Virus record (IMG/VR): IMGVR_UViG_2737471839_000014
Length of the DNA: 24,071 bases
Strand: one strand, 5' to 3'
From: a virus
Taxonomy: Duplodnaviria > Heunggongvirae > Uroviricota > Caudoviricetes
Both the position numbers and the translations under genes were made by a program. How positions within the stretch are numbered: the first letter of the stretch is position 1; each line of letters opens with the position of its first letter. The notes beneath the pieces are model-generated. The model was not told the origin of the DNA, did no database searches, and worked only from the letters and a program-made list of their open reading frames with translations. Shown piece by piece: positions 1 to 24,071 of the stretch.

Positions 1-14
1 TAAAACATTTTGCA

Positions 15-1303: not shown

Positions 1304-1308
1304 GGGAT

Positions 1309-2007: not shown

Positions 2008-2016
2008 CAGAGCCTC

Positions 2017-2346
2017 CTATGCCACGACCTGTTCAAAATCTGCCGTTATGGTTACCCACAGCGCCCCTACGCTTGCCGACCATTTACGACAAACCACCCT
2101 GATCGGCTTCCAGTCATAAGGTGGCGTCCACTGAAATGCGCGGACGCCACCGTGCCGTTCCAGAAAGGCTTTTAAAGATGGGTGTTCACATTTACGAACA
2201 CGTATCGTCACGCTGTAAGTCGACAACTGGTTATTCAGTCCCGCCGCACGACGCTGTTCATAACCATCGCCCAGCTTCACTGTCACCACTTTCGGCTCTG
2301 ATACCACATTCATATCCGGGCGCACTTTCCAGTGAAACGTCTCCAT
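2017..2346 (-). CDS. M: minor tail protein M
   Basis: 109 aa, same length and position as lambda gpM; ATG at 2346 overlaps H stop (TAATG). Confidence 0.9.
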   Translation of the reverse strand: METFHWKVRPDMNVVSEPKVVTVKLGDGYEQRRAAGLNNQLSTYSVTIRVRKCEHPSLKAFLERHGGVRAFQWTPPYDWKPIRVVCRKWSASVGALWVTITADFEQVVA

Positions 2347-5411: not shown

Positions 5412-6110
5412 AACGCACACCTCCGGAAATACCTTCCCCAAGATGCATCAGTTCTTCGTCCGTTCGCTCCGGTATCCCGTTCTCTTCCGGTAAAAGGCTG
5501 AAATCAGCCACCGCAGCATCACTGCTACCGGACACCATTCTCACGATCAATGCCTTCAGCGAGGCAAACTGCGCATCCATCCACACATCACTGAAGCTCT
5601 GCATCCGGAAATAATCGCCCCACTCACCAAGCTCAGTGGCCGACATTTCCGACAGCATCCGCCGCCAGTCTGCCCGCCGGAACTCCCGGGCAAGCCGCAT
5701 GACAAACTGCATTTCCCGCGTCAGGACTTTTCCGGCGTCAGCACCTCATGCTCCAAATCCCCGGCATTCTCAATGACTCCCATACCGCTCAGCGACAGAA
5801 CCATCTCCGCCCCCGCTCCCAGGGCATCATACGACCATGTTGTAATAACGGATGCGCAAAGCGTCTCAACATCCTGAGACTGTTCCGCATTCCACAGTGA
5901 GCGGGAAACCAGCCAGGCATTGATATCCATCCCCATCCGCAGAAAAGCAATCTGTCGTTCAGCCTCCGGCAGTTCTCCCTCTTCGGCATCAAACTTTGCC
6001 GTTCGCTGCTGAACAAACGCCAGATATTCAATTCTCTGCAGCCCGGACAGCTCACTGAGCACCACGGACTGCTTTTCATAATTAAACGTGCCCTGTTTCA
6101 GAAACATCAT
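5383..6110 (-). CDS. T: G-T tail assembly chaperone fusion made by programmed -1 ribosomal frameshift
   Basis: -1 frame relative to G is open from 5745 through the 109 aa T ORF (5383..5712); slippery-like GGAAAAG at 5733..5727 lies 4 nt before the G stop; same arrangement as lambda G/GT. Confidence 0.6.
5721..6110 (-). CDS. G: tail assembly chaperone G
   Basis: ATGATG at 6110/6107 preceded by GGTGGAG; product MMFLKQGTFNYE...SELSGLQRIEYLAF resembles lambda gpG; stop TGA at 5721-5723; track ORF is extended upstream because an earlier non-ATG codon is in frame. Confidence 0.85.
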   Translation of the reverse strand: MMFLKQGTFNYEKQSVVLSELSGLQRIEYLAFVQQRTAKFDAEEGELPEAERQIAFLRMGMDINAWLVSRSLWNAEQSQDVETLCASVITTWSYDALGAGAEMVLSLSGMGVIENAGDLEHEVLTPEKS

Positions 6111-6123
6111 GTTCTCCACCTGC

Positions 6124-6146
6124 AAAAAAGCCCCGGATAACCGGGG
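6124..6146 (-). terminator. intrinsic terminator-like hairpin between V and G
   Basis: minus strand reads CCCCGGTTATCCGGGG followed by CTTTTTT, immediately upstream of the G ribosome binding site. Confidence 0.45.
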
Positions 6147-6167
6147 CAAATGATGAGTATCGTCCTG

Positions 6168-6911
6168 TTAACCTGCGGCGCTGACAGCCACCGCAGCCAC
6201 TGCCACAAAATCGCCGTCAGAAGTCATGCCCACAATGCTGACACTGCCCTGCTTCACGCCTTTCACCGTGGCCACAAGCCCGTTCAGGGTCACCGTGGCA
6301 GTCTGTGGATCTGTCGAATGCACACTGATCGCTTTGTCACTGGCTCCGTCAGGTTTTACTGTAAAGGTCAGCGTGGTGGTTGCTCCCACTTTTACACTGG
6401 CAGATGCCGGTGCCACCGTCAGCCCGGTAACGCTCACTGTTTCAGTGCCTTCCTCTGCCAGATACGGACGCCCCACACCGCTGATTTTCACTGTGCGGGT
6501 CATCACGTCTTTTGAGGCAATGGTTTTACCCAGTGAGCTCAGCCAGCCACGGAAAACATCAACAGTGCCGTTGGGATATTTGATACGAAACGCGCAGACT
6601 TCACCGGAGTCGAACAACTGAACCAGTTTTTTCTGCCCGCTGTCACCCGGACGCCAGGCCAGCGTCGCCGAAGTATCACCGACGGATTTCTGCCCCTGGG
6701 TTGTCGTTTTCCAGTCTGCATCTTCATCATCGAGATAAGTGTCATCTTCTGCATCAGCGGTCATTTCGCCAGGTTGCAGATCCTTCACCATCGCAAGACG
6801 CAGCCAGTCAGTGTCCGATAAAGGGTTCGCAAACGCATCGCCCTTGCCGGTGTACATCCAGAACGTCGTTCCCGCACCTTTCGTTTTTGCCAGTGGATTT
6901 GGTGTGGTCAT
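6168..6911 (-). CDS. V: major tail protein V with C-terminal Ig-like domain
   Basis: ATG at 6911 preceded by AAAGGAGG; N-terminus MTTPNPLAKTKGAGTT and internal YLDDEDADW, FPNGTVDVFRGW match recalled lambda gpV; track start at 6917 is a GTG two codons upstream. Confidence 0.9.
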   Translation of the reverse strand: MTTPNPLAKTKGAGTTFWMYTGKGDAFANPLSDTDWLRLAMVKDLQPGEMTADAEDDTYLDDEDADWKTTTQGQKSVGDTSATLAWRPGDSGQKKLVQLFDSGEVCAFRIKYPNGTVDVFRGWLSSLGKTIASKDVMTRTVKISGVGRPYLAEEGTETVSVTGLTVAPASASVKVGATTTLTFTVKPDGASDKAISVHSTDPQTATVTLNGLVATVKGVKQGSVSIVGMTSDGDFVAVAAVAVSAAG

Positions 6912-6922
6912 TGCCACCTCCT

Positions 6923-7324
6923 TTAATTCGTGTACGTGATCTGGTACGTGATTTCCGCCATCGCCCAGGTGGCCATCTCATTATCACGTTGATAGTTAAA
7001 ACCGAGAGGGATCAGGGTGTCGATGAGTCCGGAAAGTGCCGGTATATCATTCAGGGCCGGGAAAATGGTGCTCTCCATCCACATATCCAGCTCTGAATCC
7101 GGTGCCTGTGCCCGGATGAAGACAGCAATATGCAGAACAGCCTGCCAGTCATCTTCATCCGTCATTTTTCCGGTGTACTGAGCATCACTCAGCCACACCG
7201 CCACGGCAGGCAGTTCCTGCGCATCAATAAATGCCGGAAGCCCGTCAAAAAACGTGGCGCTGTCTCCACACTGTTCCCGAAGGCGTGCCAGTACGGCCTG
7301 GCGGATTTGTGTATGTCGGTTCAT
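6923..7324 (-). CDS. U: tail terminator protein U
   Basis: ATG at 7324 overlaps the Z stop (ATGA); motifs ATFFDG, PAVAV, PDSELD.WMES, IPALS match recalled lambda gpU; alternative ATG at 7336 has a GAGG SD. Confidence 0.85.
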   Translation of the reverse strand: MNRHTQIRQAVLARLREQCGDSATFFDGLPAFIDAQELPAVAVWLSDAQYTGKMTDEDDWQAVLHIAVFIRAQAPDSELDMWMESTIFPALNDIPALSGLIDTLIPLGFNYQRDNEMATWAMAEITYQITYTN

Positions 7325-7899
7325 CGGGTCAGCCATAACCTCAGTTGTTGTTTCAGTGCATACCCCAGCTGTTTCGGCATTTCCGCAGCAATAATGCGGT
7401 CGCGGGCATCTTCAAATGCCTGTGTCAGCGGTCCGGACAGCGGGACTTTCACCACATCAATGGGGTAACGATTTTTGCCATCAATACGCCGCATCACATG
7501 CCAGCGACCATTCGCCAGTTGCTGAATAAACGCATCCCGGAAAAGATATTTACCCACCTTCAGCACACTGCCACGGTACTGCAGTTTTCCACCACGCCGG
7601 GCCAGTCTGACCCGGGCTGTCCCCAGCTTAATAGCGGGCAGATTGCCCCGGTTAACGCGGATCCTGGCCGTCATTTTTCCTGACGGACTGGCTTTAAACA
7701 CCCGGACACGCTGACGTACCAGTTTCAGGGGGATCCCTTTCACCTGGTTATCTCCCGCAACGGTATTCCCGGCAACCTGCCGGGTGGCGACCGAGACCGC
7801 TTTCTGTGCCACACGGTTTATCGCCCATGCGCTGGCCTGTGGCACCATACGGGTATCAAGGCTGTTCAGATTACGGATGGCATTCTCAAGCCCCTTCAT
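7321..7899 (-). CDS. Z: tail completion protein Z
   Basis: 192 aa, same length and position as lambda gpZ; ATG at 7899. Confidence 0.8.
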   Translation of the reverse strand: MKGLENAIRNLNSLDTRMVPQASAWAINRVAQKAVSVATRQVAGNTVAGDNQVKGIPLKLVRQRVRVFKASPSGKMTARIRVNRGNLPAIKLGTARVRLARRGGKLQYRGSVLKVGKYLFRDAFIQQLANGRWHVMRRIDGKNRYPIDVVKVPLSGPLTQAFEDARDRIIAAEMPKQLGYALKQQLRLWLTR

Positions 7900-7910
7900 C
7901 CCACACCTCT

Positions 7911-8186
7911 TTACTCAATAAAGATCATTGGCTTACCGTTAAAACGTTCATGCCGTGTGACCGTCCATTGTTGTCCGTCATAAACAACGCGATCCCCGCG
8001 CCGTGGGCGGTATCCCGAAGAAAACACCACCAGAGAGACCGCAGGTCCGGACAGAGCATTCAGCTCTGCCAGTGTTTCTCCCGGGATCACAGTCATATCG
8101 ACATCATTAATCGAGGCTGTCTTTCCCATCTTTCTAACCGTGATAGCATCCATACGCGCTGCCAGCCGGGAAAAGGGATCAGACAT
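7911..8186 (-). CDS. head-tail joining protein (gpFII-like)
   Basis: 91 aa; N-terminal MSDPFSRLAARMDAI and C-terminal RRGDRVVYDGQQWTV pattern resemble lambda FII (MADFDNLFDAAIARADE ... RRGDTLTIGEENFWV); immediately upstream of Z. Confidence 0.65.
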   Translation of the reverse strand: MSDPFSRLAARMDAITVRKMGKTASINDVDMTVIPGETLAELNALSGPAVSLVVFSSGYRPRRGDRVVYDGQQWTVTRHERFNGKPMIFIE

Positions 8187-8502
8187 TGAGTTTTACCGGC
8201 ACTTCTTCTGCACTGGTTCCGGCATCTGCCCAGACAACCCCGACCAGCGGATCAGAGCCGCTGTTAGTCAGCTGAACTTTTCCGGACTTCAGATAAACCT
8301 TCTTACCCGTTTTCATGTCATCCGTTTTCAGCTTAGGCAGCATAAACACACCTTCGGTCATGCCGTCGCCTGTTTCACCCTGTGGAATATCGGTCAGCGC
8401 CACCGCAAAAACATCGCCCACCTGCACCAGATCTCCGCTGCTGATGGCTGCACTGGCAACAATCGCCACCGTTTTTCCTTCTTCTACAAAATTCTTTGCC
8501 AT
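8179..8502 (-). CDS. head-associated protein of unknown function (FI position)
   Basis: ATG at 8502 preceded by GGAG; 107 aa product MAKNFVEEGKTVAIVASAAISSGDLVQVGDV...; lies between capsid gene and FII-like gene; function not recognised. Confidence 0.45.
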   Translation of the reverse strand: MAKNFVEEGKTVAIVASAAISSGDLVQVGDVFAVALTDIPQGETGDGMTEGVFMLPKLKTDDMKTGKKVYLKSGKVQLTNSGSDPLVGVVWADAGTSAEEVPVKLNV

Positions 8503-8543
8503 AACTGTCTCCGCACAGCCCCGTTCAGGGGCTGATTTCAGGT

Positions 8544-8566
8544 ACAAAAAAAGCCCTTACGGGCCA
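8544..8566 (-). terminator. putative intrinsic terminator after capsid gene
   Basis: minus strand GGCCCGTAAGGGC followed by TTTTTTTG in the 86-bp gap after the capsid stop; stem is short. Confidence 0.3.
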
Positions 8567-8588
8567 TCAGAGTTGTTGTCTGCGACGT

Positions 8589-10547
8589 TTACGCCGTACA
8601 TTTCACCAGACCGCGGTGATCAACTGGCGCGACACCGGCGTCAATACGCACTTTCGTTGTCACGCCATCCACACTGAAGCCCTCCATCTGATCAATATAT
8701 GGCGTATCCACACCGTTGAGATAAGCCACTTCAATCGTATCGGAGCCTTTTGACGCAGCCAGGTAGAAGGTGGTCTGGCTGTTATCATCAAGACGAGGCT
8801 CTGCAATAACGGTCGCAAAATCTTTCACCGGGTTAATAATACCGGCGTTAATGTCAGCCCCCTTGACACTTGAGGAGCGAATGACCTGGTTAGCAACAGA
8901 CTCCATCGCCGTCGGTACCAGTACGAACGCAGGACGAATATTCAGATGACGCTCCCCCTCTTTCTGAACGCGCATCAACTGGCGGGCTTTATCCAGCGAT
9001 GCCACGTCCATTGCAGCGCTCTCCAGTACGTTTGCATGTTTCGCTTTATCGAACAGACTTACATTATCTGTGGAGATTTTCGGGTTAGACGTCAGAATGG
9101 CATAAACCAGATCGGCAATAGTGGATTTCGCCGCACGGCCCAGTTTCATCGGGACATCGGTCAGCATATTCAGATCATCATTGATAATGGCCTGACGGGT
9201 GATACTGAACAGCTCGCCATAGGTCGCCAGTGCAATAGTGGCCTGTTTATCTCCGGTGGTGACGTATTTATATTCCGCCCCTTCACGCACCTGACGTAGA
9301 GCACTGAAGCCCCCCATACCCACACGATGGGCAATTTTAAAATCAGACAACTGACCTTTCCGCGTCCACTGTTCATAGGTTTCAGGGGCATCTTCCCAGC
9401 CCTGCAGAATGGCTTTGTTCGCAACATCCAGCAGAATATTACCGAAGTCAGACGTACTGTGTGTGAACGCCGCACCGACCATCTGCATCGGGTTATAACC
9501 GGAAACCCCAATACCCCGTTCAGTTAGTGACATACGGGCATATTCACGCAGGGTCATCCCGTTGTAGACATTATCACGTTCGGTTTTTTCAAATCCGGCA
9601 CGCGCCATCAGCGCCTGGCGAATCCCGTCCCCCACAAAATTACCGTTACCGGCATAAATATGAGCCGGGGTATTTTTATTGGATGGCGTGGACTCGCGCC
9701 CCATCTCGTTCAACAGCTTTTCACGGGCCTGCTCCAGCGAACATTCAGGATCGGCAAGACACTGGGCCTGCAGCGTCTGATAACGCCCGCCAAACATGGC
9801 AAACAGATCATTAATACCGTTTACACGCGCTTTTTGCTCTGCCAGTACCTGCGCACGGATACTGTTTTCATCCACCACGGGTGCTGCTGCCTGCACTGGC
9901 GTCCGGGAGGCTGCAGGTTCATCATCCTGTACGCGTGGAGCACTGTTGCGTGGCGGAGTAATCATGTTTCGAATGGATTCCGGCATCTTTTTAAATTCCT
10001 CTGTACGTTTTGACTGAATACATGCCATTGCCTTAACGGCTGGTGTCACCTGATCAGCAAATCCCTGTGCCAGACATTCGGCACCGGACATCCAGGTCTC
10101 ATCCGCCAGCATGGCAGCAATTTCATCGGTGGTTTTCCCGGTTTTCTGTGCATAAGCGGGTAACAGAACCGCCTCAACTTTATCGAGCAGGTCGGCATAG
10201 GTGCGCATGTCCTCCGCATCACCGCCCGTAAAGCCAAATGGTTTATGAATCATCATGAAGGAGTTTTCCGGCATAATGACCGGGTTTCCCACCATCGCAA
10301 TGACCGACGCCATTGACGCCGCCACACCGTCGACATAAACGGTAATGGACGCACCATGTGTTTTCAGTGCATTAAAAATGGCGATGCCTTCAAAGACATC
10401 GCCACCCGGTGAATTAATATGGAGATTAATGTGGGTGATATCGCCCAGTGCATTCAGATCACTGATAAACTGCTTCGCTGTAACACCCCAGAAACCAATC
10501 TCGTCATAAATATAAATATCCGCGTCACTCTGGTGACCTGCCTGCAT
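8589..10547 (-). CDS. ClpP-like prohead protease fused to HK97-fold major capsid protein
   Basis: single ORF; N-terminal region YIYDEIGFWGVTA...INSPGGDVFEG...MASVIAMVG has ClpP/S49-like protease motifs; long C-terminal region is capsid-like; ATG at 10547 is the first ATG after the portal stop; track ORF extends to 10808 in a frame overlapping portal. Confidence 0.8.
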   Translation of the reverse strand: MQAGHQSDADIYIYDEIGFWGVTAKQFISDLNALGDITHINLHINSPGGDVFEGIAIFNALKTHGASITVYVDGVAASMASVIAMVGNPVIMPENSFMMIHKPFGFTGGDAEDMRTYADLLDKVEAVLLPAYAQKTGKTTDEIAAMLADETWMSGAECLAQGFADQVTPAVKAMACIQSKRTEEFKKMPESIRNMITPPRNSAPRVQDDEPAASRTPVQAAAPVVDENSIRAQVLAEQKARVNGINDLFAMFGGRYQTLQAQCLADPECSLEQAREKLLNEMGRESTPSNKNTPAHIYAGNGNFVGDGIRQALMARAGFEKTERDNVYNGMTLREYARMSLTERGIGVSGYNPMQMVGAAFTHSTSDFGNILLDVANKAILQGWEDAPETYEQWTRKGQLSDFKIAHRVGMGGFSALRQVREGAEYKYVTTGDKQATIALATYGELFSITRQAIINDDLNMLTDVPMKLGRAAKSTIADLVYAILTSNPKISTDNVSLFDKAKHANVLESAAMDVASLDKARQLMRVQKEGERHLNIRPAFVLVPTAMESVANQVIRSSSVKGADINAGIINPVKDFATVIAEPRLDDNSQTTFYLAASKGSDTIEVAYLNGVDTPYIDQMEGFSVDGVTTKVRIDAGVAPVDHRGLVKCTA

Positions 10548-10560
10548 CCTGAACCAGGAA

Positions 10561-12069
10561 TTATTCTTCGGACTGGTCGTCGGTGTGCTGCGGCTCCTGT
10601 CGTTTCGTTGCGGCACTGCTGCCTCCTTTATCACTGGCCGGATCGGTATCAAATACCAGATCCAGCTTGCGGTTTTCATCAATTTCGGCCTTGCGCCGAC
10701 GTTTGACATCATCCGGATTACGACCACCTGCACGTACCCAGTCTGATTCTGTCGCCGCTCCACCACGAATCTGAATTTTCCAGGCCTCAGCCTCCTTAAC
10801 AGGGTCAATCCACGGCATCACCGGTCCGGAATACACCGCGGTATACAGTGAAGAACGATCAAGATCGCGGGGTAGCCTGATAACACCGGATGCCACAGCC
10901 TGTTTCAGCCAGGCACGATACATCGGGCGGGTGACGGCACCAATAAACCAGTCCTGCAGGATCAGGTAGCCATCAGTGGATTCAACCAGCTCCTGACGCT
11001 GGGCGCTGTAAGTGCCGTTATAGTTGCGTGCCGTACTGGAAAAACTCAGACGACTGCCCGCCGCCACGGCACGCAACTGACCATTACGAAAAGTTTCAAG
11101 GTTAGGATTGGGACGATCCGACTTCACCATTCCGATTTCTTCGCCGGGTTTCAGATCGTCGTAAATAATGCCTGGCTGAATGGTAAGCTCGCGTTCATTC
11201 TCCTTGCTGCCATTACCATCCGGTTCATAGCTCTGCCCGTCGCCTTTCCGGATGTACATCCCCAGAGCAGCGGCGATCCTTGCTGCAGTCAGCTCAGAAT
11301 CTTCATACTCTTTCAGGGCACTGAGGCGGATCAGCACACCGGACAACAAAGACGTCCCGCGCATCTGGTGCAGACGGCGAACAAATTTAAGATGCAGCAT
11401 TCGCTCTGCATCCACTTCTTTGGTTTCCATCTGCCGCCCGGATACGGGACGGCTTTTATACACCAGATATTTTTCGGGACGCCCCCAGTCATCAACAAAC
11501 ACGCCCTGATTCAGCCTGTTGCTCTCATCACTGGTCATGGGAATAAAGTCCGGCTCGAGCGCCTCCAGCCAGAAATGAACACCGGCAGAAGGCGTCAGGC
11601 TGTTTATGCGCCCGGAAACCATCTGGGCAAACACCTCACCATCGCGCAGCCAGGTACGCAGCATCAGACGTTCCAGCATCGGACGGGTAAACTGCCCGGT
11701 GACTTCCGGACTGACAGACCATTCACTCCATCGGGTGCGTATCTCCGCTGCCAGATCACGGGCAATGGCCCCATTGCGTAATACCGGATGTGGCTCGACA
11801 ATAATCCCGTTTTTCCCCACCACCCGTTCTTCCAGCTTGTCAAATACACCAATAACCAGATCGTGGTTGTTATCAAGGTAACGGGCCTGCTCACGTAACG
11901 ACACGGCCCCGTACTGGCTTAACTGGTCGGCAGTTCGGTTTTCCCGCCGGGCTTTGTGTGTCCGTGTCGTTTTTACGGCCTCATAAGCCTGGATCACCGC
12001 ACGGGAACGCAGCCTTGCCGCTTTCCATCCTGGTGAAAAAACGCCAATCACATCATCAAGAATTGCCAT
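10561..12069 (-). CDS. portal protein (lambda gpB family)
   Basis: about 502 aa; ATG at 12069 overlaps W stop; position between W and the protease-capsid gene; size and composition typical of lambda-family portal; track start at 12141 is a GTG. Confidence 0.85.
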   Translation of the reverse strand: MAILDDVIGVFSPGWKAARLRSRAVIQAYEAVKTTRTHKARRENRTADQLSQYGAVSLREQARYLDNNHDLVIGVFDKLEERVVGKNGIIVEPHPVLRNGAIARDLAAEIRTRWSEWSVSPEVTGQFTRPMLERLMLRTWLRDGEVFAQMVSGRINSLTPSAGVHFWLEALEPDFIPMTSDESNRLNQGVFVDDWGRPEKYLVYKSRPVSGRQMETKEVDAERMLHLKFVRRLHQMRGTSLLSGVLIRLSALKEYEDSELTAARIAAALGMYIRKGDGQSYEPDGNGSKENERELTIQPGIIYDDLKPGEEIGMVKSDRPNPNLETFRNGQLRAVAAGSRLSFSSTARNYNGTYSAQRQELVESTDGYLILQDWFIGAVTRPMYRAWLKQAVASGVIRLPRDLDRSSLYTAVYSGPVMPWIDPVKEAEAWKIQIRGGAATESDWVRAGGRNPDDVKRRRKAEIDENRKLDLVFDTDPASDKGGSSAATKRQEPQHTDDQSEE

Positions 12070-12281
12070 CAGAACCTCGCCAGCCGGTACCCGGGATGCC
12101 CCCGTCGTCGTGTAATCAGAGCCGCAAGGCGGCGCTCCCACTCCTGCCGTCCCTGCCGGATCTCAGATAAGTTTTCCATGGTCATCTGCTGACCATTAAA
12201 GGTGACGGATTTTCCGTCCAGCACCGCCATTTCAGCTTCCGTATAACGCTGAATCATGGCTTCGATATCATTCTGGTTCAT
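12069..12281 (-). CDS. head-tail joining protein (gpW-like)
   Basis: about 70 aa; ATG at 12281 overlaps terminase stop (ATGA) and follows GGAGG; C-terminal RRRGHPGY resembles lambda gpW RRRGPAGF; located between terminase and portal as in lambda. Confidence 0.65.
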   Translation of the reverse strand: MNQNDIEAMIQRYTEAEMAVLDGKSVTFNGQQMTMENLSEIRQGRQEWERRLAALITRRRGHPGYRLARF

Positions 12282-14380
12282 AACCATCCTCCGGAAGTCA
12301 GCCAGGGGTTAACATCGTCAGTTACTGTTTTCTTCCGTTTTTGTTTTTTAACAGGCGTGGATACCGGTTCCGGTGTGGGTGACGGTTCGGTACTGTCCGG
12401 GACACACTCCAGCCAGGTTTCCCGGCTCGCCCACTCCGGTGCATCCGGCCAGCGGATCTTTTCGTATCCATGCAGAATGACCAGAGCCTCGGCATACACC
12501 ATCAGGTCAAAAGCTTCGTTGGCACCGCGACCCGGCTTACTCCATTTCCCGTCACTGCTCCGCTCTTCATACGTCAGTTCGTCGTAAAACCAGCTCCCCA
12601 GCCAGTCAGGGAAATGCACATAGCCGGGACCTGGCGAGTCACGCCATAACGCGTTATTCACCCGGTCTTTCAGGGCATCCGTCTGAAGAAGCCAGAGCGG
12701 CACATCACCTGCGGCCTGCGCCCGGCGGCCCGTTCGTCCGGTGTTATCAGGGAATGTACGGCTGATCAGTTTTGCGCGCCGGATGCTGTCACCCTTAAAC
12801 AGGTAAATACGTTTACCAAGGCCATCACGACGGCAACGACGCCAGAATTTATAGGCATTATCAGTGACCCCGTCTTCACCGCCGGAGTCCACCGCCATTG
12901 CCATCAGTCGCATTTGTTGAGAAGGATCGGAGGCCAGCGGCCAGCTTTTATGAAAAACATCCGTCAGCAGGACATCCCAGTCTTCCGGATAGCTGGCCGG
13001 ATCAATTCGCTGGCTCTCCCCGTCGCTGTCACCGCGCAATGACTGCGTGATGTTGTAACGATCAATAATCCAGCGTTCGCCACGGCTGCCATAGCCCGTT
13101 ACCTGAACCACAAAACGGCGATGACGTCCCGCCTGCACATCCACTGTCGCCACAAGGAAATTAACGCCATCCGGCACACTGCGGGAAGGAACTGGCTCTG
13201 CCCGCTGCTCAAGCAATTCACTTTTTCGTTGCTCCATGCTGGCGCGGGGAAGATAAGGTAATCCCCAGTCGGTATTGATAACCGTCTTGAGTGTCTCTTC
13301 ACTTCCGGTTGTCTCGTATTCCTGTTCTGCAGTAAGCAGTTTGTAAACGAGTTGCGAGAGTGTCTGATAAGCAGCTGCCGGACCCTCCATCCAGAATGAC
13401 GCAATACGTGAACGCCGGGGATCACCATAACGACTGCCATCTGCATTGATGGATTCACCATCCCGTAACCAGACCCCACGTCCGTTCAGCTCGCGTTTTT
13501 GTTCAGGCAAAATCCGTCCTGAACAGGAAGGACACTGAATATAAGCCGCCTCACTTGCCAGCACAGGATCGGCAATATCACGGAAACCAGCAACCACATC
13601 GCCGCAGGGCTGAAAATACTCACCACAGTGTGGACAGGGCCAGTACCAGCGACGGCGATCGCCACGGTTATAGAGCGACAGGATCCCCGTGGTTGGTGGA
13701 GCCTCATGCGGTGAAGTCCGTCGCCATTTCACATCCTTCACATCCCTGCCGGGGGAACTCTCCACCAGCGTCATACCACTGGACATAAATGTGGTGGTAC
13801 GTTTTGAGGCAAGAGAGAAGGCATCCCCCTCACCATCAATATCTTCCGGAAAACGGTCATAATCCGTCAGCGCCACGCATTTATAATCTGATGAAGACAT
13901 GATATTGACTGACGGCCAGCCGATTTTCAGGTAGTTGCCAGCAAGGAATGTTCTGTCATAAACGTTGTTGTCATTTTTGTTCGGACTCAGGCGACTGACC
14001 ACTTCCGGGCTGACGCGAAACGTTCTGGCGAGTCGTTTTTTGGAGTGTTCGCGGGCTTTTTCCTCCGTCATCTGAATGATCAGCATATCAGCAGGATCGC
14101 AAATCACGTTGTAAATCACCCAGCCGTCAATCAGGCCGATAGTCTTGCCGGTTCGTGCCGGGCCAACAAATATCACTGCGTCGTATTCACGCGAGGCCAG
14201 GCAGTTCATAGGCTCAATAACATACGGTGCCACCAGCGGATCCCACGGGACTGAGTTCCCTGCCCCCATAGGCACCCGCATATACTGAGCAACGGCATCA
14301 GCAACCCGCATTCGTCTCGGTGCGCGAAGGATATAACCTGAATCGGTTCGTGCTGCCTTTGCGGTTTCCTGATTCAGCAT
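12278..14380 (-). CDS. terminase large subunit (lambda gpA family)
   Basis: 700 aa; Walker A FVGPARTGKT; ATG at 14380 preceded by AGGAGG and overlapping the small subunit stop (TAATG). Confidence 0.9.
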   Translation of the reverse strand: MLNQETAKAARTDSGYILRAPRRMRVADAVAQYMRVPMGAGNSVPWDPLVAPYVIEPMNCLASREYDAVIFVGPARTGKTIGLIDGWVIYNVICDPADMLIIQMTEEKAREHSKKRLARTFRVSPEVVSRLSPNKNDNNVYDRTFLAGNYLKIGWPSVNIMSSSDYKCVALTDYDRFPEDIDGEGDAFSLASKRTTTFMSSGMTLVESSPGRDVKDVKWRRTSPHEAPPTTGILSLYNRGDRRRWYWPCPHCGEYFQPCGDVVAGFRDIADPVLASEAAYIQCPSCSGRILPEQKRELNGRGVWLRDGESINADGSRYGDPRRSRIASFWMEGPAAAYQTLSQLVYKLLTAEQEYETTGSEETLKTVINTDWGLPYLPRASMEQRKSELLEQRAEPVPSRSVPDGVNFLVATVDVQAGRHRRFVVQVTGYGSRGERWIIDRYNITQSLRGDSDGESQRIDPASYPEDWDVLLTDVFHKSWPLASDPSQQMRLMAMAVDSGGEDGVTDNAYKFWRRCRRDGLGKRIYLFKGDSIRRAKLISRTFPDNTGRTGRRAQAAGDVPLWLLQTDALKDRVNNALWRDSPGPGYVHFPDWLGSWFYDELTYEERSSDGKWSKPGRGANEAFDLMVYAEALVILHGYEKIRWPDAPEWASRETWLECVPDSTEPSPTPEPVSTPVKKQKRKKTVTDDVNPWLTSGGWL

Positions 14381-14874
14381 TACTCCTCCTGCTGTAATTC
14401 CTCCTCATCATCCGCACCTGCTTCAGTCACCCGCAGGGCTATCTGATCGCGCAGATCATCAATAATGGACTGAACACGGCTCACAGCGGCAGGCTGCAGA
14501 CCGCAGTCACGTTCAAGAATATCCGGTAATGTCTCCAGCACCTGCACGACCGCTTTTGCCCAGATGGCAAACTCCCGTCTGACATCACTGGCCGGAATGA
14601 GTTGTGCCGTTTCCTGTTCGAACTTAAGACGCTCACGTTCAGACTGATACCAGGCTTTGCGCTCATGCGCGTCCATTTCGCCTTCTGCAACCGGCGGTGG
14701 TAATGCCAGAAATGCCGACACAATATCAACCACCCGATAAAGCTTGAGGTTGCTTTCATGCCCCCCTGCAACGGGTAGATTTTGCAGCCTTGCCGCAGCA
14801 GTCTGGCGATGTACACCTGACAATGCCGCCAGTTGACTGATATTCAGCGTCAGATTTTTTAACTCTCGATCCAT
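14380..14874 (-). CDS. terminase small subunit (Nu1-like)
   Basis: 164 aa; N-terminal HTH-like LTLNISQLAALSGVHRQTAAARLQNLPV resembles lambda Nu1 N-terminus; acidic C-terminus; ATG at 14874 with GGAG SD; about 185 nt downstream of candidate cos. Confidence 0.75.
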   Translation of the reverse strand: MDRELKNLTLNISQLAALSGVHRQTAAARLQNLPVAGGHESNLKLYRVVDIVSAFLALPPPVAEGEMDAHERKAWYQSERERLKFEQETAQLIPASDVRREFAIWAKAVVQVLETLPDILERDCGLQPAAVSRVQSIIDDLRDQIALRVTEAGADDEEELQQEE

Positions 14875-15037
14875 ACCCGCTCCAGAATGTTTTAAACATG
14901 CATCTTGCGAACAACTTTAGGCAAACGGTGTTAGTGATGAACAAAAAACAATCAGAATCGACACCATAAAAATAAAACCACTGTAATATCAATCAATTAC
15001 AGTAGTGGTGATGACGAATAAAATTTCAAAAACTAGC

Positions 15038-16569: not shown

Positions 16570-16775
16570 TTCATTTTCACTTTCTTAAATCTAACGACAG
16601 ATGGCTAACATTTAAGTATTGTGAAATATTATCAAATGTAATCATCATTGATTTACAAAAGATACATTTTGCCCCGAAAGGATTTCTGTCAGAAACATCA
16701 AAAGATGATGTTCTATACTGAGAACCATGGCAACACGGGCATCTAAAGTGAATATGGTTTGTAATATTTTCTACC

Positions 16776-16988
16776 TCAAAGTGCCACTACATGAACAGCT
16801 GCAGGGCCTTTAGGTCCGTTCTCAATACCAAATTCGACTTCCTGATTCTCAGTTAACGTTTTGAAATCGTTGCTCTGAATAGCTGAGAAATGCACAAACA
16901 CATCTTTGCTACCATCTTTCGGCGTGATGAAACCAAAACCTTTTTCAGGGTTAAACCATTTCACTAAACCAGTCATTTTGTTAGACAT
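16776..16988 (-). CDS. cspI: cold-shock protein, CspA family (CspI-like)
   Basis: 70 aa [38 protein letters not shown]... with canonical cold-shock domain motifs (RNP1-like KGFGFI, VFVHF); ATGATG start at 16991/16988; long AT-rich 5' leader typical of csp genes. Confidence 0.85.
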
Positions 16989-17351
16989 CATTATTACCTT
17001 TTGAAGAAGTTAGCCCTTGGGCAGAATGGTCCGAAAAAAAATATCAGAGAGAAAAACCAACAAGGAAATCTCAAGAGGTACAAATAATAAAATTATAACA
17101 ATGACTGCTTCAGATAATTTTGTAACAAACCAGAACACCATTAACGCATGATTAACCAACCATAGCAAGGATTACTTTTGTAAAGAAAAACACACGAATG
17201 AAACAATAGCTTTATTTATTAATAAAACGTGTCATTCTGTCTAATGACCTTTTATCTTACCCTTAAGATTTCAAGGATTTTGACTCATGGAAGAGTCCTT
17301 TTTATTTAAATTTCACATTCAGCGCTAAAAATAATCCGATTTAATATTAAT

Positions 17352-18374
<1,023 letters not shown>

Positions 18375-18378
<4 letters not shown>

Positions 18379-18686
18379 AGATATTTATGATGAGGACGCT
18401 CGTGCTTATTGGCAGGATTTTCAATCTTAAAGGAGTACTGATGCTGCAGATAAGACTCAACTTTTTCTGACAATTTTTCTGCTACTTCCAGGAAGACTTG
18501 CCGGACGCTCATTCTGGCTGCTGCCTCATAAAACTCCAGCGCAGCTCCTTCAACACGGTCCATGGCGACATCCAGGCCAAAAATTTCACCGTCAAAGCGT
18601 TCTTTGTCCCGTAACGCTAAAGTTACCGTAACTTTATTCTCAAAATTGCGGATCCCTTTCACAATCAGTTCATATTTTTGAGTCAT
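18375..18686 (-). CDS. YdfR-like protein (unknown function) between holin and endolysin
   Basis: 103 aa soluble ORF, ATG at 18686 with GGGAGAG SD; same size and position as ydfR of E. coli K-12 Qin (between essQ and rrrQ); identity by synteny and length only. Confidence 0.6.
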
Positions 18687-18690
18687 TGAA

Positions 18691-18906
18691 TTACTCTCCC
18701 CGTGCAGCCTTACGCTTGTCTTCTTTAATCTTGAAATAAAGGTTTGTCAGGTACGTCAGCAGGCCAAATACCAGGCTACCCAGCACACCTATTGCTGCCC
18801 ACTGTGAGGGCGTGACTTTATCGAGCAGCTGTAAAAACCAGTAGCCAGCACTGCCTGCGGAGGTGCCGTAGGCAATGCCTGTTGAAATTTTGTCCATGGA
18901 TTTCAT
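18691..18906 (-). CDS. class II holin (phage 21 S21-like pinholin) with dual-start motif
   Basis: [71 protein letters not shown] closely matches recalled S21; Met-Lys-Ser-Met dual start (ATG at 18906 and 18897); GGAGGTGA SD; track ORF extended upstream in frame. Confidence 0.85.
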
Positions 18907-19007
18907 AGCCTCACCTCCGCACGGAACGGATGGCATAGTTATTATGTGTAAGCTTCCAGACACATCAATCAGAGCCTTAATTGATATATATGCTGGAGAC
19001 GATGCAA

Positions 19008-19032
19008 TATAAAAAGCTCGCCGTAGCGAGCT
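19008..19032 (-). terminator. intrinsic terminator downstream of lipoprotein pair
   Basis: minus strand AGCTCGCTACGGCGAGCT (7-bp stem) followed by TTTTTAT; between lipoprotein 2 stop and holin start. Confidence 0.5.
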
Positions 19033-19157
19033 AATAAAATGTATTTCTCTGATATTATGTTTATTTGTATTAGCTCAGACTTGACATCACAGGTTTCGTA
19101 TATAGAACATCATCAAATCTGTCAGTTTGCTATGAATGAGATATAGTAATTGAAGAG

Positions 19158-19553
19158 CTAACCTCGCATGTCAAAGCCAGATTTCTGAAAATCTCTGTAG
19201 ACTTCCGGATTGTTGAAGGCCGGAAATTTGGCTTTATGAGCTGCGGACTTTATCGCTTCGCAATAGGCTTTATCACCGTTACTGGTAGATATTTTTAACG
19301 CCGTGCCATCCTGAGAGAATTCCATATGCAACCTGCATTTTTTCCCTTTCCAGTTATGCGGCTCATCAAGTTTGGCATTAATTGCAGCTCTGATTCCCCG
19401 CGCTTGCGCCCCCCATTCATCCTGATCATCCCAGCGTCCTGAACTGCAACTACCTGTAGCAGTAGTTTTGTGGCAATCTGAAGGGTGTAAAGGTGTGCAT
19501 CCCGCAACAAAACCGACCCAAAAAGTCAACATAACGATTTTCTTTAATCCCAC
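19158..19553 (-). CDS. lipoprotein with diverged TolA C-terminal domain III-like fold (paralog 2)
   Basis: 131 aa; GTG start at 19553 with GAGGAG SD (alternative ATG at 19532); signal peptide with lipobox VAGC; C-terminal half ...KGKKCRLHMEFSQDGTALKISTSNGDKAYCEAIKSAAHKAKFPAFNNPEVYRDFQKSGFD shares spacing of Cys pair and Gly/Asp positions with paralog 1 and TolA domain III. Confidence 0.75.
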   Translation of the reverse strand: MGLKKIVMLTFWVGFVAGCTPLHPSDCHKTTATGSCSSGRWDDQDEWGAQARGIRAAINAKLDEPHNWKGKKCRLHMEFSQDGTALKISTSNGDKAYCEAIKSAAHKAKFPAFNNPEVYRDFQKSGFDMRG

Positions 19554-19703
19554 TTCTTGCTCCTCAATCCATTAAAATCTCAGCAATAGTAGTTGTTACG
19601 TCCGCCACTGGCTCAGAGCTGACTATCCGCTAAATTTAGCTCAGTGCCGTAGTTGTGTCAGAACAAACCTAAGCCGAAACCGTTTATTACAAAACAATAA
19701 ATA

Positions 19704-20132
19704 TCAGGGTTTAAAATCCAGCACCCCATTTTGAAATACTTTATATACTTCCGGCGAAGGGGGGGCAGGTATATCAGCATTCTTTATCGCATTCATCGCT
19801 TCACGACATAAATCGAGGTATCCACTTTCTCTTTTAACCTCCAGTAGAAGGCCATTCGGGGCCATATGCATTCTCAGTGTACACTCTTTTCCTGAATACT
19901 TACTCGCATCCCCGAACTGTTTTTCGATGGCGCTCTTGATTTGATGGGCATACAGACGGATATCCTCACTAACATCAGAAGTACGTTCAGATGAACTCAC
20001 ATACTGTGTCTCTATTGCTTTATCGGAGTAATATGATGTACGGTCATGATAATTTGTCGATACAGCATCAGTGCACCCGATAATAATCCCACTAATAATC
20101 AACGTAAGAATTGATGCGCTACGAAAACCCAT
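19704..20132 (-). CDS. lipoprotein with TolA C-terminal domain III-like domain (paralog 1)
   Basis: 142 aa; ATG at 20132 with GAGGA SD; signal peptide MGFRSASILTLIISGIIIGC (lipobox IIGC, Thr at +2); C-terminus YAHQIKSAIEKQFGDASKYSGKECTLRMHMAPNGLLLEVKRESGYLDLCREAMNAIKNADIPAPPSPEVYKVFQNGVLDFKP aligns with recalled E. coli TolA C-terminus YAGQIKSAIESKFYDASSYAGKTCTLRIKLAPDGMLLDIKPEGGDPALCQAALAAAKLAKIPKPPSQAVYEVFKNAPLDFKP. Confidence 0.8.
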   Translation of the reverse strand: MGFRSASILTLIISGIIIGCTDAVSTNYHDRTSYYSDKAIETQYVSSSERTSDVSEDIRLYAHQIKSAIEKQFGDASKYSGKECTLRMHMAPNGLLLEVKRESGYLDLCREAMNAIKNADIPAPPSPEVYKVFQNGVLDFKP

Positions 20133-20831
20133 TTTTCCTCACATATGTCATATAGTAAAGGATTATATATACCGTTGTTTTGGACGCTCAAACAGCGAAT
20201 CAGATCAAATAAAACGCACATTTGTTAACATTTACACAAAGTCTGCGTGGGATATTCTGAAAGAATATCCATAATGTGGAGAGAATCTATTGAAGTGCAT
20301 GGTGCCGGGTGCCTCCCGGTGAATTCAGTACCAGCACCTGAATCCACGATTATCCCATATACCTACTCGCTGATTGCCCCTCCGCATAGGGGGATTCACC
20401 ATGCCAGTTTCTTTTAACAAACTCCCCGCAAACCAGACAACAGTCAACCGCCTGAATTGTGAAGTATTTAAAAATTTCTCCCGCTAACTGATACCCGGCT
20501 AACAGTCTGGCGTTTTCTTTTTCAGCAACGGGAAAGCAACAACCACCACACCCGCCACCAGCACACCGTCAGCCAGCACTGACATTATCCGGCTGCTGCA
20601 ATGCCATTCACAAAAACAGTAAGCAATCACTTTTTACCGTAACAGGTGATAATCCAGATATGTATCTACCCCAGATGAGTAATCCGAAGTTCATCCATAC
20701 CACAGGTCCTGGCTATTCTGTTGTACTCCTGAACAAGAGCAAATAATTCTGAATTAGCAACCATGAACTCATCGCAAACCCTCTGTATAGCATCACTATT
20801 CAGAATAATAACGTCTCTTCCCGAAAGACGA

Positions 20832-21245
20832 TCAGGAGTACAGAACAAAACTGTCAAACGGCTGAAGGCCTTTGCTCGTGCTGCATTGACTATACAACAC
20901 CATTGCGCCGGTACCATAACGGTGAATGACGGTTTCGCTGTGATGATAATCGCCGTGTGGCCACTGGCAGGATTTAATATGGCGCAACAGCCAGTCAGAC
21001 AATGCACCAGCACCACCAGCAGCACGAATCACCCGTGCGTTACTGAAAAACGGCAGCAATGTTTTGTCTTCCACCAGCGGCTGGCGAGCGGCAGGGACGA
21101 CCCCGGACGGCAGATTACGCATGCTTTTCGGTTCCGGCTCCACCAGTAACCGGGTATTGTGGAATACCGGCATGGATTCACGGCCCGGCTTAACGATCAC
21201 CAGCCCGAGTTCCGGTACCAGAACAGGTCGAAGTAATACCCGCAC
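20832..21245 (-). CDS. hypothetical protein in the late-regulator (Q) position
   Basis: 137 aa; GTG start directly after upstream ORF stop with GGAGG 4 nt upstream; no recognised motif; overlapped by an alternative-frame ORF (20666..21025). Confidence 0.35.
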   Translation of the reverse strand: MRVLLRPVLVPELGLVIVKPGRESMPVFHNTRLLVEPEPKSMRNLPSGVVPAARQPLVEDKTLLPFFSNARVIRAAGGAGALSDWLLRHIKSCQWPHGDYHHSETVIHRYGTGAMVLYSQCSTSKGLQPFDSFVLYS

Positions 21246-21246
21246 G

Positions 21247-21525
21247 TTACCTCCAGATGCGTTGCTGGAATGTGCGGGACGGACGCGGTGGGCGTTCGGA
21301 GTAAGGAAGCCTGACGGAGATTATCCAGTGACGGTAGTCGAGGCTAAGGGCTTTTTTAACCTCGCATCCGCGCCTGCGGTAACACTGAATGAGCCATTCG
21401 GCCTGTTCTTCAGTGCATGGGGGATGCTGGTACCAGTCTGACTTAAATGTGTGAGAATACCGCTCGTGCGTGTGGGCAAGAACGGTCGAATTATCATGAT
21501 TGTAATATTTTGCGTTGCGTGCCAT
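21247..21525 (-). CDS. hypothetical Cys/His-containing small protein
   Basis: 92 aa; ATG at 21525 with GGAGA SD; three Cys and several His (PPCTEE...CYRRRGCE); function not recognised. Confidence 0.4.
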   Translation of the reverse strand: MARNAKYYNHDNSTVLAHTHERYSHTFKSDWYQHPPCTEEQAEWLIQCYRRRGCEVKKALSLDYRHWIISVRLPYSERPPRPSRTFQQRIWR

Positions 21526-21591
21526 CGGTTTTCTCCGGTGGCACGGTGTTACTCAGCGGGAGTTCAGCCCCGCGCAAGATTGTAGATGAGT

Positions 21592-21843
21592 TTATTCTTC
21601 TGAAAAAGCAGAAAAGCCAGCTTTTATTCCGATCTCTTTCAATGCCTGTAATGAAGTGACAAACTCACCGTCGCGCAAGATAAATCCGTCCGTCACTCGG
21701 GCATCCACAAAATTAATTAACGCAGCCCCATTTTTTTGCAAACACACAATGCGGTAATGACTAGCAATATTTCCATTTTCAACGCACACAGCATAGAGGC
21801 CATCTTCACAAAAAATTTTACGCAGTTCTTCGATGTTCATCAT
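21592..21843 (-). CDS. hypothetical small protein
   Basis: 83 aa; ATGATG start at 21843/21840 with AAGGA SD; N-terminus MNIEEL shared with the gnsB-like ORF; same size and relative position as rem of K-12 Qin (not verified by sequence). Confidence 0.5.
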   Translation of the reverse strand: MMNIEELRKIFCEDGLYAVCVENGNIASHYRIVCLQKNGAALINFVDARVTDGFILRDGEFVTSLQALKEIGIKAGFSAFSEE

Positions 21844-21957
21844 CAGAATCCTTCCGGATAATTAGCTCTCCCCTTTAAGGGACCATCCCTCTTATCCCTG
21901 CGCGCTACTTAAGTATTTTTGATTCTATTCCGGCACCATCCAGAACTTCAAATGCGT

Positions 21958-21990
21958 TGAAAATAAAAACAAAAACCCGCCGAAGCGGGT
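21958..21990 (-). terminator. intrinsic terminator downstream of hokD
   Basis: minus strand ACCCGCTTCGGCGGGT (GC stem, TTCG loop) followed by TTTTTGTTTTTATTTT, about 70 nt after the hokD stop. Confidence 0.65.
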
Positions 21991-22059
21991 TAAGTGCGGG
22001 TGCGTTGAGGATGCCTGCCACATCAGAGGTGGCGAGGGATTTCTCACTCGCCGGGTCTC

Positions 22060-22215
22060 TTACTCCTCAGGTTCGTAAGCTGTGAAGACAGCGACCTCCG
22101 TCTGGCCGGTTCGGATTCGTACCTCGCAGAGGTCTTTCCTCGTTACCAGTGCCGTCACTATGACGGTTAAACAGATGACGATCAGGGCGATTAACATCGC
22201 CTTTTGCTGCTTCAT
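22060..22215 (-). CDS. hokD: Hok/Gef family type I toxin (HokD/RelF-like)
   Basis: 51 aa MKQQKAMLIALIVICLTVIVTALVTRKDLCEVRIRTGQTEVAVFTAYEPEE, matches recalled HokD; ATG at 22215 with AAGGAG SD; track ORF 22060..22272 is an in-frame upstream extension. Confidence 0.9.
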   Translation of the reverse strand: MKQQKAMLIALIVICLTVIVTALVTRKDLCEVRIRTGQTEVAVFTAYEPEE

Positions 22216-22472
22216 AGCCTGCTTCTCCTTGCCTTTCGGCACGTAAGAGGCTAACCTACATGTGTCTAGCATGAAATTGGCCTCAGATTAATGTTAAGCG
22301 TCTTGCAGGACGCGTAATGTTAACTGGGGCTTTTCTCTACCTGCCGTTGGTGTTCGTGCCCGAGGCAGATAGCCTCAAGCACCCGCAGTCATTCTACTTA
22401 ACTAAGATTTCCCCGCAAACCGTTTTGTCCAGCACAGTAAATATCCAACTAAACCAATGGAGTTCGCTGTAT

Positions 22473-22652
22473 TTACCGCCAGTATTCAATGCACATGACC
22501 GCCATGAACACCCCTAAAAAAAGGGCATTTATATATCCAAATATTAATATCAAAACATCAACTTTTTCCATATACCTTGCTGTGAAGATGATGGGCATAC
22601 ATGATGCGAACAACCAGAACGCAACAAACAAAAACTGCAATGCGTTTTTCAT
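22473..22652 (-). CDS. small membrane protein (two predicted TM helices), unknown function
   Basis: ATG at 22652 preceded by GGGGGA; 59 aa MKNALQFLFVAFWLFASCMPIIFTARYMEKVDVLILIFGYINALFLGVFMAVMCIEYWR; track ORF starts at upstream GTG. Confidence 0.4.
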   Translation of the reverse strand: MKNALQFLFVAFWLFASCMPIIFTARYMEKVDVLILIFGYINALFLGVFMAVMCIEYWR

Positions 22653-23134
22653 TATTCCCCCTACAATCAATGTGCAATAACATTTAAACACACCTCAATT
22701 TAGCCGGACATATAAATATCTAAACCAGAAAAAATCACTTACATAGCGTTACAAACTCTTTAGTCTAAATATTCATCGTAAAACATTCCCCATACTTATC
22801 AGCCCGTTCTGCGCCAGGTAGCTCATTGCCTTATCTGGGAACCTGTAATCAGGTTTCCGGATGCTGGTGGATTTTCGCGTTTTAGTTGTTCATAAAAGTG
22901 CACAGCTTTAACCAGTTCTTCTGATGTAACCGGGACTGGCGGGGCAGTGAATAAGGCCTGAATTTCATAGTTCGGCCTATCGTTACAATCCTCTTTTTTC
23001 GGTACATATTTCCAGTCACCAGACCACTACTTCCCCTGAAAGTCCGTAACGCCTTTTTTTCACGTAGCGATATCGCCATGCCACTGTTTTTGCTTGCCCC
23101 GCCGTTTCATGCCCTTCCTGATAATTAACCTCGC

Positions 23135-23311
23135 TCATTCATCGCCCCACTCATCACAATATGCTTCGACCGGAGTTTTTCCTGCTTCATAATCATCACG
23201 CCATGCTTCAGCATCAGCAGCACTGCCACCACGTAACTCTGCATAGTCCATTAACAGTTCATGCCATTCTTCAAAACCGACGTTGTATTTAGTTGAACCA
23301 AAATCAGCCAT
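23135..23311 (-). CDS. small acidic protein, unknown function (below ORF-track cutoff)
   Basis: 58 aa MADFGSTKYNVGFEEWHELLMDYAELRGGSAADAEAWRDDYEAGKTPVEAYCDEWGDE; ATG at 23311 preceded by GAGGAAG; translated by hand from the sequence. Confidence 0.35.
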   Translation of the reverse strand: MADFGSTKYNVGFEEWHELLMDYAELRGGSAADAEAWRDDYEAGKTPVEAYCDEWGDE

Positions 23312-23348
23312 TTTGTTCTTCCTCTTCGTCTTTTATTTCGTGATATGA

Positions 23349-23486
23349 TTAATTGCAGTAGTTAAAGAAAATATCTTTTGCTTCGTCATGTATTTCATCA
23401 GGCGTCGCATCATTATCCACTTCGAATTCATCCTCGAAATCTCCACCGGCTATTCCCGTTTCAATAATTATTTTAAACTTTCGCAT
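23349..23486 (-). CDS. small acidic protein, unknown function (below ORF-track cutoff)
   Basis: 45 aa MRKFKIIIETGIAGGDFEDEFEVDNDATPDEIHDEAKDIFFNYCN; ATG at 23486 preceded by AGGAGG and a GC hairpin; translated by hand. Confidence 0.3.
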   Translation of the reverse strand: MRKFKIIIETGIAGGDFEDEFEVDNDATPDEIHDEAKDIFFNYCN

Positions 23487-23891
23487 TTAACTACCGCCCT
23501 TTCGGGCGGCCTCCTGATGTTCTGAGGGTGCAGAAATCCCTCCGGTTAAGGATTAAATTTTTAACAGTGCTAAATTTAATTATTCAGTTCTGGATTTTGT
23601 CACCCTGCGTATCCGCGCTTTCCCGTTACGCTCAATCTGAATTAGCTTTTCTATATTTTTTCGCCTTTCCCGTTCCTCCTGGCGCAAGAGCCTTACATCA
23701 TCTGCCAGTCTGGTTTCTCTTTTCGCCACAGAGAGCATCCAGTCAAATGGCTCCACAACTGCACCTCAGATTTTACAGCGGACCTGACGCTCTTTTTCGT
23801 CAACCCGGACAGAAGCGTGATGGCAATATGGTCTTTCCGATGGCTCATAAAGAAAATTAACCTGATTACGAGGGTCATCCTCTTTTATCGG

Positions 23892-24071
23892 TGAACCGCC
23901 CCGGGTTTCCTGGAGAGTGTTTTATCTGTGAACTCAGGCTGCCAGATCATTGTTTCCGATGGAAGCATAATAAGCTTTTTCTGCTTCTGCCGGAGGAGTA
24001 TGGCCCAGCCTTCCCAGCAATCGTCGATTGTTATACCAGTCCACCCACGTGAGTGTGGCCAGTTCCACTTC
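23892..24071. mobile_element. end of an IS3-family insertion sequence (IS629/IS1203-like), truncated by window edge
   Basis: terminal sequence TGAACCGCCCCGGGTTTCCTGGAGAGTG starting at 23892 matches recalled IS629-type inverted repeat; followed by transposase 3' end on minus strand. Confidence 0.65.
23934..24071 (-). CDS. IS3-family transposase OrfB, C-terminal fragment (5' end outside window)
   Basis: minus-strand translation ...EVELATLTWVDWYNNRRLLGRLGHTPPAEAEKAYYASIGNNDLAA stop; resembles C-termini of IS3-family transposases. Confidence 0.7.
   Translation of the reverse strand, partial: EVELATLTWVDWYNNRRLLGRLGHTPPAEAEKAYYASIGNNDLAA

Follow-up and report, generated by a model that had tools for sequence, protein, structure and literature searches.

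The region at 20133-21525, where a lambdoid antiterminator gene Q would be expected, is most probably (about 93% in our estimate) the scar left when one illegitimate deletion took ~2.4 kb out of an E. coli prophage of the lambdoid mEp460/PEC1011 type, as alignments to intact relatives suggest. The DNA analysed (the window) is 24,071 nt long and makes up the entire contig JUDH01000047.1 from the draft assembly GCA_000798355.1; the contig is a GenBank record and was seen in three samples. The deletion would run from codon 117 of ydfU to the interior of the phrog_2873 ORF, upstream of the DUF3927 gene. It would have removed the 3' two-thirds of ydfU, rusA, a lambda-family Q, the late promoter PR' with its sigma-70 pause/qut element, the terminator tR', and one or two tRNA genes. 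Two ORFs found at the site (137 and 119 aa) would then be by-products of two unrelated frames joined out of register. The scar is a case of ordinary prophage decay in a known prophage type and not a novel regulator, and no new biology is implied. Every gene in this region and its surroundings lies on the minus strand. The features are as follows.

19158-19553, minus: second TolA C-terminal-domain lipoprotein gene (PF06519), a paralogue of the next
19704-20132, minus: TolA C-terminal-domain lipoprotein gene (PF06519), the moron of the initial annotation
20162-20191, minus: sigma-70 promoter-like site TTGAGC-18-TATAAT (10/12), 30 bp upstream of the TolA-like gene
20243-20433, minus: STnc100-family prophage sRNA (RF02076; Rfam 111.5 bits, gathering score 47, model positions 1-206)
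20499-20630, minus: moron gene for a DUF3927/TciB-like small membrane protein of 43 aa (PF13064, E 1.7e-27; phrog_1470)
20666-20893, minus: 3' fragment of phrog_2873, 75 codons and stop, 5' end deleted (phrog_2873, E 2e-69)
20666-21025, minus: 119-aa ORF, GTG start, in another frame than the 137-aa ORF and overlapping it
20832-20893, minus: out-of-frame tail of the 137-aa ORF, 20 codons and stop, encoded 3' of the junction
20832-21245, minus: 137-aa ORF, GTG start, 1 nt past the stop of the 92-aa ORF
20893/20894, no strand: predicted deletion junction, 1 nt of microhomology; alignments to each relative switch here
20894-21245, minus: ydfU 5' fragment, codons 1-117 (352 nt), predicted truncated pseudogene lacking the entire DUF968/HNH domain
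21247-21525, minus: 92-aa ORF, ATG start, intact conserved hypothetical gene (phrog_1212, E 5e-36) that precedes ydfU in all relatives

The initial annotation had described three ORFs (92, 137 and 119 aa) at the expected position of Q, the latter two overlapping in different frames, and had assigned none of them to a Q family. All three were found as described, the overlap was confirmed, and the site is indeed where a lambdoid Q gene belongs. Pfam gave no match for any of the three at E≤0.01. Run on the whole window, tblastn of one PF03589 Q and one PF06530 Q reached E 0.14 at best, and no Q family was present among the genes called on the deposited contig. With Pfam, PHROGs, NCBIfam, the PDB sequence search and tblastn all negative, Q-family membership of the three ORFs was rejected; judged by these searches, none of them is an antiterminator. 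The initial annotation had held that two findings together would speak against its proposal. Clear homology of the ORFs to non-regulatory proteins was found, but a Q gene elsewhere in the window was not.

The closest intact relative is the PEC1011 prophage (NZ_CP159540.1, 2.308-2.320 Mb), with 99.0-99.3% identity over 17000-23891 on both sides of the junction. Window positions 17000-20894 correspond to PEC1011 locus L009 1501-5396 (99.3% identity), and positions 20894-23891 to 7754-10751 of the same locus (99.0% identity). Both have the common order hokD, rem, 92-aa gene, DUF968, DUF3927, TolA-like genes, essD, ydfR, rrrQ, and rzpQ. PEC1011, unlike the window, keeps 2358 bp with a full-length DUF968 gene, rusA, a 273-aa antitermination protein, the PR' motif, and a tRNA gene with the anticodon CAT. 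The same breakpoints were found against mEp460 and against strain 2013C-4991, compared to which 2535 bp and 2536 bp, respectively, are missing. Leftward from 20894, the window is 99.3-99.5% identical to the relatives' DNA upstream of the DUF3927 gene. In the relatives, the missing segment contains the 3' 698 bp of ydfU (with the whole DUF968/HNH domain), rusA, Q, PR', tR', and one or two tRNA genes with the anticodons CAT and TCT; the annotation of this intervening DNA lists DUF968, RusA, antitermination protein, and tRNA. No tRNA genes were found in the window, the relatives' copies being located in the deleted segment. Because only one base is common at the join, illegitimate recombination is a better description of the event than a repeat-mediated one. 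The parental sequence is inferred from the relatives, and the junction is known from one draft assembly.

Phage mEp460 (LR597641.1; lambdoid, deposited as a phage genome) is collinear with window positions 1-22404 at 93.6-99.4% nucleotide identity by segment, and positions 1-14899 are collinear with its structural genes. Thirty of 32 mEp460 proteins tested, from late, lysis, moron, and adjoining genes, lie outside the deletion, and each of these is matched in the window by a reading frame free of stops (89-100% identity); 28 of the frames are full length, and two are short of the first 3-6 residues only. Among the proteins tested, only Q, RusA, and the C-terminal two-thirds of the DUF968 protein are missing. 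Unlike the window, mEp460 has Q-PR'-tR'-tRNA(CAT)-tRNA-Arg, rusA, and an intact DUF968 gene. The deletion is the only visible lesion, and it is probably recent because every other late gene is full length or nearly so. The window ends in an IS fragment (23934-24068, minus strand, the 3' end of a transposase ORF), and the early region of the prophage lies beyond the contig. In PK13 and two related genomes, an IS3 element is located beside this locus. A repeated IS at the contig end probably explains the contig break and hides the early region.

In annotated E. coli relatives, the gene order hokD, rem, 279-bp hypothetical gene, 1050-bp ydfU is fixed, and ydfU, which encodes a 349-aa protein, starts 1 base after the 279-bp gene. 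The start of the 137-aa ORF coincides with the annotated start of ydfU. From there, 352 nt (20894-21245), which are 117 codons plus 1 nt, showed 99.7% nucleotide identity to ydfU of strain 20AR0354, with the match ending exactly at 20894, and 99.0% to PEC1011; by arithmetic, 20 more codons lead to the stop at 20834-20832. Tblastn of YdfU from 20AR0354 against the window matched N-terminal residues only (90% identity over residues 1-133, the alignment extending ~16 residues beyond the junction at codon 117) and revealed no counterpart of residues 118-349 anywhere in the window. The pointer to DUF968 in the initial annotation was apt: the 137-aa ORF corresponds to the 5' third of the DUF968/ydfU gene. 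According to Pfam, the DUF968 domain (PF06147) occupies residues 160-346 of the intact protein. Because this domain is deleted, we regard the 137-aa ORF as a truncated ydfU pseudogene and not as a functional DUF968 member. Its exact product was found solely on this contig.

The 119-aa ORF consists of 44 out-of-frame ydfU codons (20894-21025) fused to the last 75 codons of phrog_2873. The latter ORF is intact in mEp460 (locus L004 5534-5887; 117/108 aa), and the fragment in the window is 98.7% identical to it over residues 43-117. A TerB-family identity of the 119-aa ORF, hinted at by a pseudogene of FORC 064 in the same position, was rejected, as the DNA is unrelated and Pfam gave no TerB match. 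The intact phrog_2873 ORF (~108 aa, between the tRNA genes and DUF3927) belongs to a recognised phage protein family; RefSeq leaves it unannotated in every sampled record among the 1182 E. coli genomes holding most of this DNA. Pseudogene fragment would be the better label for the 137-aa and 119-aa ORFs, or for the 83-aa version among the gene calls of the deposited contig.

Two overlapping frames on the same strand could also arise from programmed ribosomal frameshifting of one gene or from a sequencing indel. We give this explanation practically no weight: in the intact homologue one frame encodes all 349 aa, and nothing in the window corresponds to residues 118-349; the 119-aa ORF begins with 44 codons of ydfU sequence in the wrong frame; and the DNA flanking 20894 derives from loci that lie 2.4 kb apart in the relatives. 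An indel, moreover, would leave the downstream ydfU sequence in place, and that sequence is absent. A chimeric join in the contig, with the real genome keeping the ydfU-rusA-Q-PR'-tRNA segment, is highly improbable as well. Such an artefact would fit a draft-assembly contig with a junction seen in no other genome searched: no locus spanning it was found in 5426 complete E. coli genomes, and a 32-mer across it is absent from GTDB representative genomes. However, the single nucleotide common at the join offers no repeat or k-mer for an assembler to collapse, the same contig was recorded in three samples, and independent deletions of the same module exist in finished genomes, e.g., in ET565.

The flanks of the junction differ in their affinities, which gives some ground to a recombination origin from two resident prophages. 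The Qin cryptic prophage of E. coli K-12, likewise a defective lambdoid prophage, shares the succession of hokD, rem, and ydfU with the window (rem-ydfU-quuQ region in Qin). Qin-type ydfU loci are 99.6-99.7% identical to the window over 20894-21900. Unlike the window, where ydfU is truncated and Q is absent, such loci (e.g., in 20AR0354) have an intact ydfU followed by a Q-family gene of the PF06530 type. Over 20894-22000, the left flank shows 99.7% identity to Qin-type loci and only 92-93% to mEp460, while the right flank is 99.4% identical to mEp460. Illegitimate recombination could accordingly have joined a Qin-type prophage, as the source of rem, the 92-aa gene, and the ydfU 5' end, with an mEp460-type late region. 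We consider this very unlikely: both flanks (99.0-99.3% identity) occur together in the intact PEC1011 prophage, separated by just the genes that would be expected, so that a parent of this type exists and no second prophage need be invoked. Under either origin, Q and PR' are both absent.

The module that would have been lost with the simple deletion resembles that of phage lambda. The relatives' Q has 273 aa and matches PF03589 (E 1e-54) and the structures of lambda Q (7UBM/7UBN; E 2.8e-40). Directly 3' of it, the sequence TTGATT-16-TAAATT-CGTCAT-AAYGATGGG is followed by a GC-rich hairpin and a T-run. In lambda, the -35 and -10 hexamers of PR' and the AACGAT sigma-70 pause element are functionally established. 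The relatives' motif aligns base for base with lambda PR', including the -35 element, the -10 element TAAATT, the AACGAT pause element, and GGG. The three relatives whose Q module is intact (L004, L005, and L009) have it, and the other six loci compared, including the contig of the window, lack it. No match to it was found in the window with up to three mismatches allowed. The initial annotation had placed the late promoter and the Q-utilisation site within 20133-20665. This placement is not borne out: since the motif lies 3' of the relatives' Q and is absent from the window, the late promoter, qut, and tR' must have been located within the deleted segment. The Q/PR'/qut/tR' unit of lambda (PR' with TAAATT and AACGAT-GGG) is thus like the module lost here; it differs from that of the relatives in that their Q carries a DnaJ-like insert and in that tRNA genes and morons follow tR', while the window has no module. 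The insert in Q of mEp460/PEC1011 (L004 6394-7215) is a DnaJ-like CXXCXGXG zinc-finger segment (PF00684, E 7e-7), which is absent from the 207-aa lambda Q.

The 92-aa ORF is an intact, unrelated gene. RefSeq annotates a 279-bp hypothetical gene at the same place in the relatives. Homologues of the protein were found almost exclusively in Escherichia and Shigella, and those with this family alone are all unnamed. The initial annotation had described the ORF as containing Cys/His residues. The ORF is present, but this character is not conserved: among 19 homologues, H34 and C37 alone are invariant, and C48 and C54 are variable. A zinc-finger reading of the protein was rejected because its cysteines are not conserved. 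The AlphaFold model had a mean pLDDT of 65, with a core at residues 30-72 of ~85 that folds, with moderate confidence, as beta-alpha-beta-beta. No match to this model was found by Foldseek against PDB at E≤0.001, and the PDB sequence search with the protein also gave no match.

The position of the 92-aa and DUF968 genes just upstream of the late region might suggest that one or both encode an unrecognised antiterminator replacing Q, all the more as the DUF968 gene of mEp460 (LR597641) bears the RAST label 'Phage antitermination protein Q'. Such a role is extremely unlikely. Both genes neighbour a bona fide Q in relatives with the region intact; the 92-aa protein showed no resemblance to Q in Pfam, PDB, or fold comparisons and lacks conserved zinc ligands; and the DUF968 domain is deleted here. 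The intact DUF968 protein, in turn, matches HNH endonuclease families (phrog_96, E 2e-171; HNHc_6), and a published account (PMC4118853) presents DUF968 proteins as Orf-like mediators of recombination with a fused HNH zinc-finger nuclease. They represent nin-region recombination functions, not regulators. The mEp460 gene with the RAST label (DUF968/ydfU) is located at L004 7599-8648 (LR597641.1 36885-37934), and the true Q at L004 6394-7215. With the true Q two genes downstream, the label is a misannotation, and it is likely the source of a propagated one.

The DNA at 20133-20665, which the initial annotation had described as about 530 bp of non-coding sequence, holds the DUF3927 gene and a full-length match to the STnc100 sRNA. 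The DUF3927 protein scored 95.6 bits against a curated cut-off of 25 and is 100% identical to the mEp460 protein; its gene is annotated by RefSeq in the relatives. The STnc100 copy has, in place of the consensus 3' hairpin (GC-rich, with a U-tail), an AU-rich hairpin (GGAUAUUCUUUCAGAAUAUCC) that lacks a U-run, and the promoter scan revealed no consensus promoter just upstream of it (20243-20433). The sRNA may therefore be a 3'-processed or read-through species and not an independent transcript, in which case the loss of PR' could affect it. As a prophage sRNA, STnc100 is already known; it is related to PasD and lies downstream of stx2 in Stx phages (bioRxiv 10.64898/2026.05.13.724894; PMC12370729). 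The copy in the window sits in a moron slot equivalent to the Stx-phage position.

A scan of 20133-20665 for consensus promoters yielded a single 10/12 site, before the TolA-like gene. This site (20162-20191) is probably the own promoter of the TolA-like moron and not PR'; this is the simplest reading because the site is conserved in mEp460, whose PR' adjoins Q. The two TolA-like genes matched PF06519 with E-values of 4e-22 and 1e-14 and showed 99-100% identity to mEp460. Both paralogues lie between STnc100 and the holin gene. Their lipoprotein products may act as decoys towards colicins or phages that depend on TolA.

Loss of the late-control module appears to be recurrent in E. coli prophages, as suggested by an independent deletion in ET565 and by a truncated DUF968 gene with no Q downstream in FORC 064 (L003). 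The ET565 prophage (NZ_CP100944.1) resembles the window in its late region (99.5% identity over 19600-20894) and in having neither Q nor PR'. It differs in that its deletion is 1313 bp long (equal to mEp460 L004 6100-7412; ET565 L001 5207-5233) and has other end points: Q, PR'/tR', the CAT tRNA gene, and the rusA 3' end are removed, ydfU is intact, and tRNA-Arg is kept. The contig analysed here is thus a further example of independent Q-PR' loss in E. coli prophages that keep STnc100, DUF3927, and TolA-like lipoproteins. The independent losses in this contig and in ET565, together with the absence of Q in FORC 064, could also, though we consider it very unlikely, reflect selection for 'grounded' prophages that keep their morons.

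The lambdoid order of late genes is kept in the window, and Q and the late promoter are absent through a demonstrable lesion, which makes this a Q-less and presumably defective prophage. Because neither Q nor PR' is left, the late operon should be silent, although read-through from upstream promoters is possible, and we infer that the prophage could neither lyse the cell nor make particles. Expression would remain possible for genes that have signals of their own (DUF3927, STnc100, the TolA-like lipoproteins, csp, gns, and hok/sok). The loss of tR' might, on the other hand, have fused the delayed-early (nin-region) unit to the moron and late region. Antiterminated early transcripts could then read on induction into DUF3927, STnc100, the TolA-like genes, and the lysis and morphogenesis genes, a Q-independent rewiring with late expression in place of silencing. 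We regard such rewiring as very unlikely. With the late operon predicted to be silent, the prophage is to be scored as defective despite its intact-looking structural and lysis genes; an intact-looking late region does not imply an inducible phage. The case matters chiefly for annotation.

Several accessory loci surround the region. A hok/sok type I toxin-antitoxin locus at 22060-22384 (minus strand), comprising a hokD-like ORF (51 aa within a 70-aa ORF) and an Rfam sok match of 107.8 bits, is located upstream of rem, as in Qin. At 16730-17146 (minus strand), a cspA-type thermoregulator 5' UTR (Rfam, 110 bits) was detected before a cold-shock protein gene (16776-16991). YmcF-like, YnfN-like, and GnsB genes follow the cold-shock gene, and this moron cluster lies between the lysis genes and cos.
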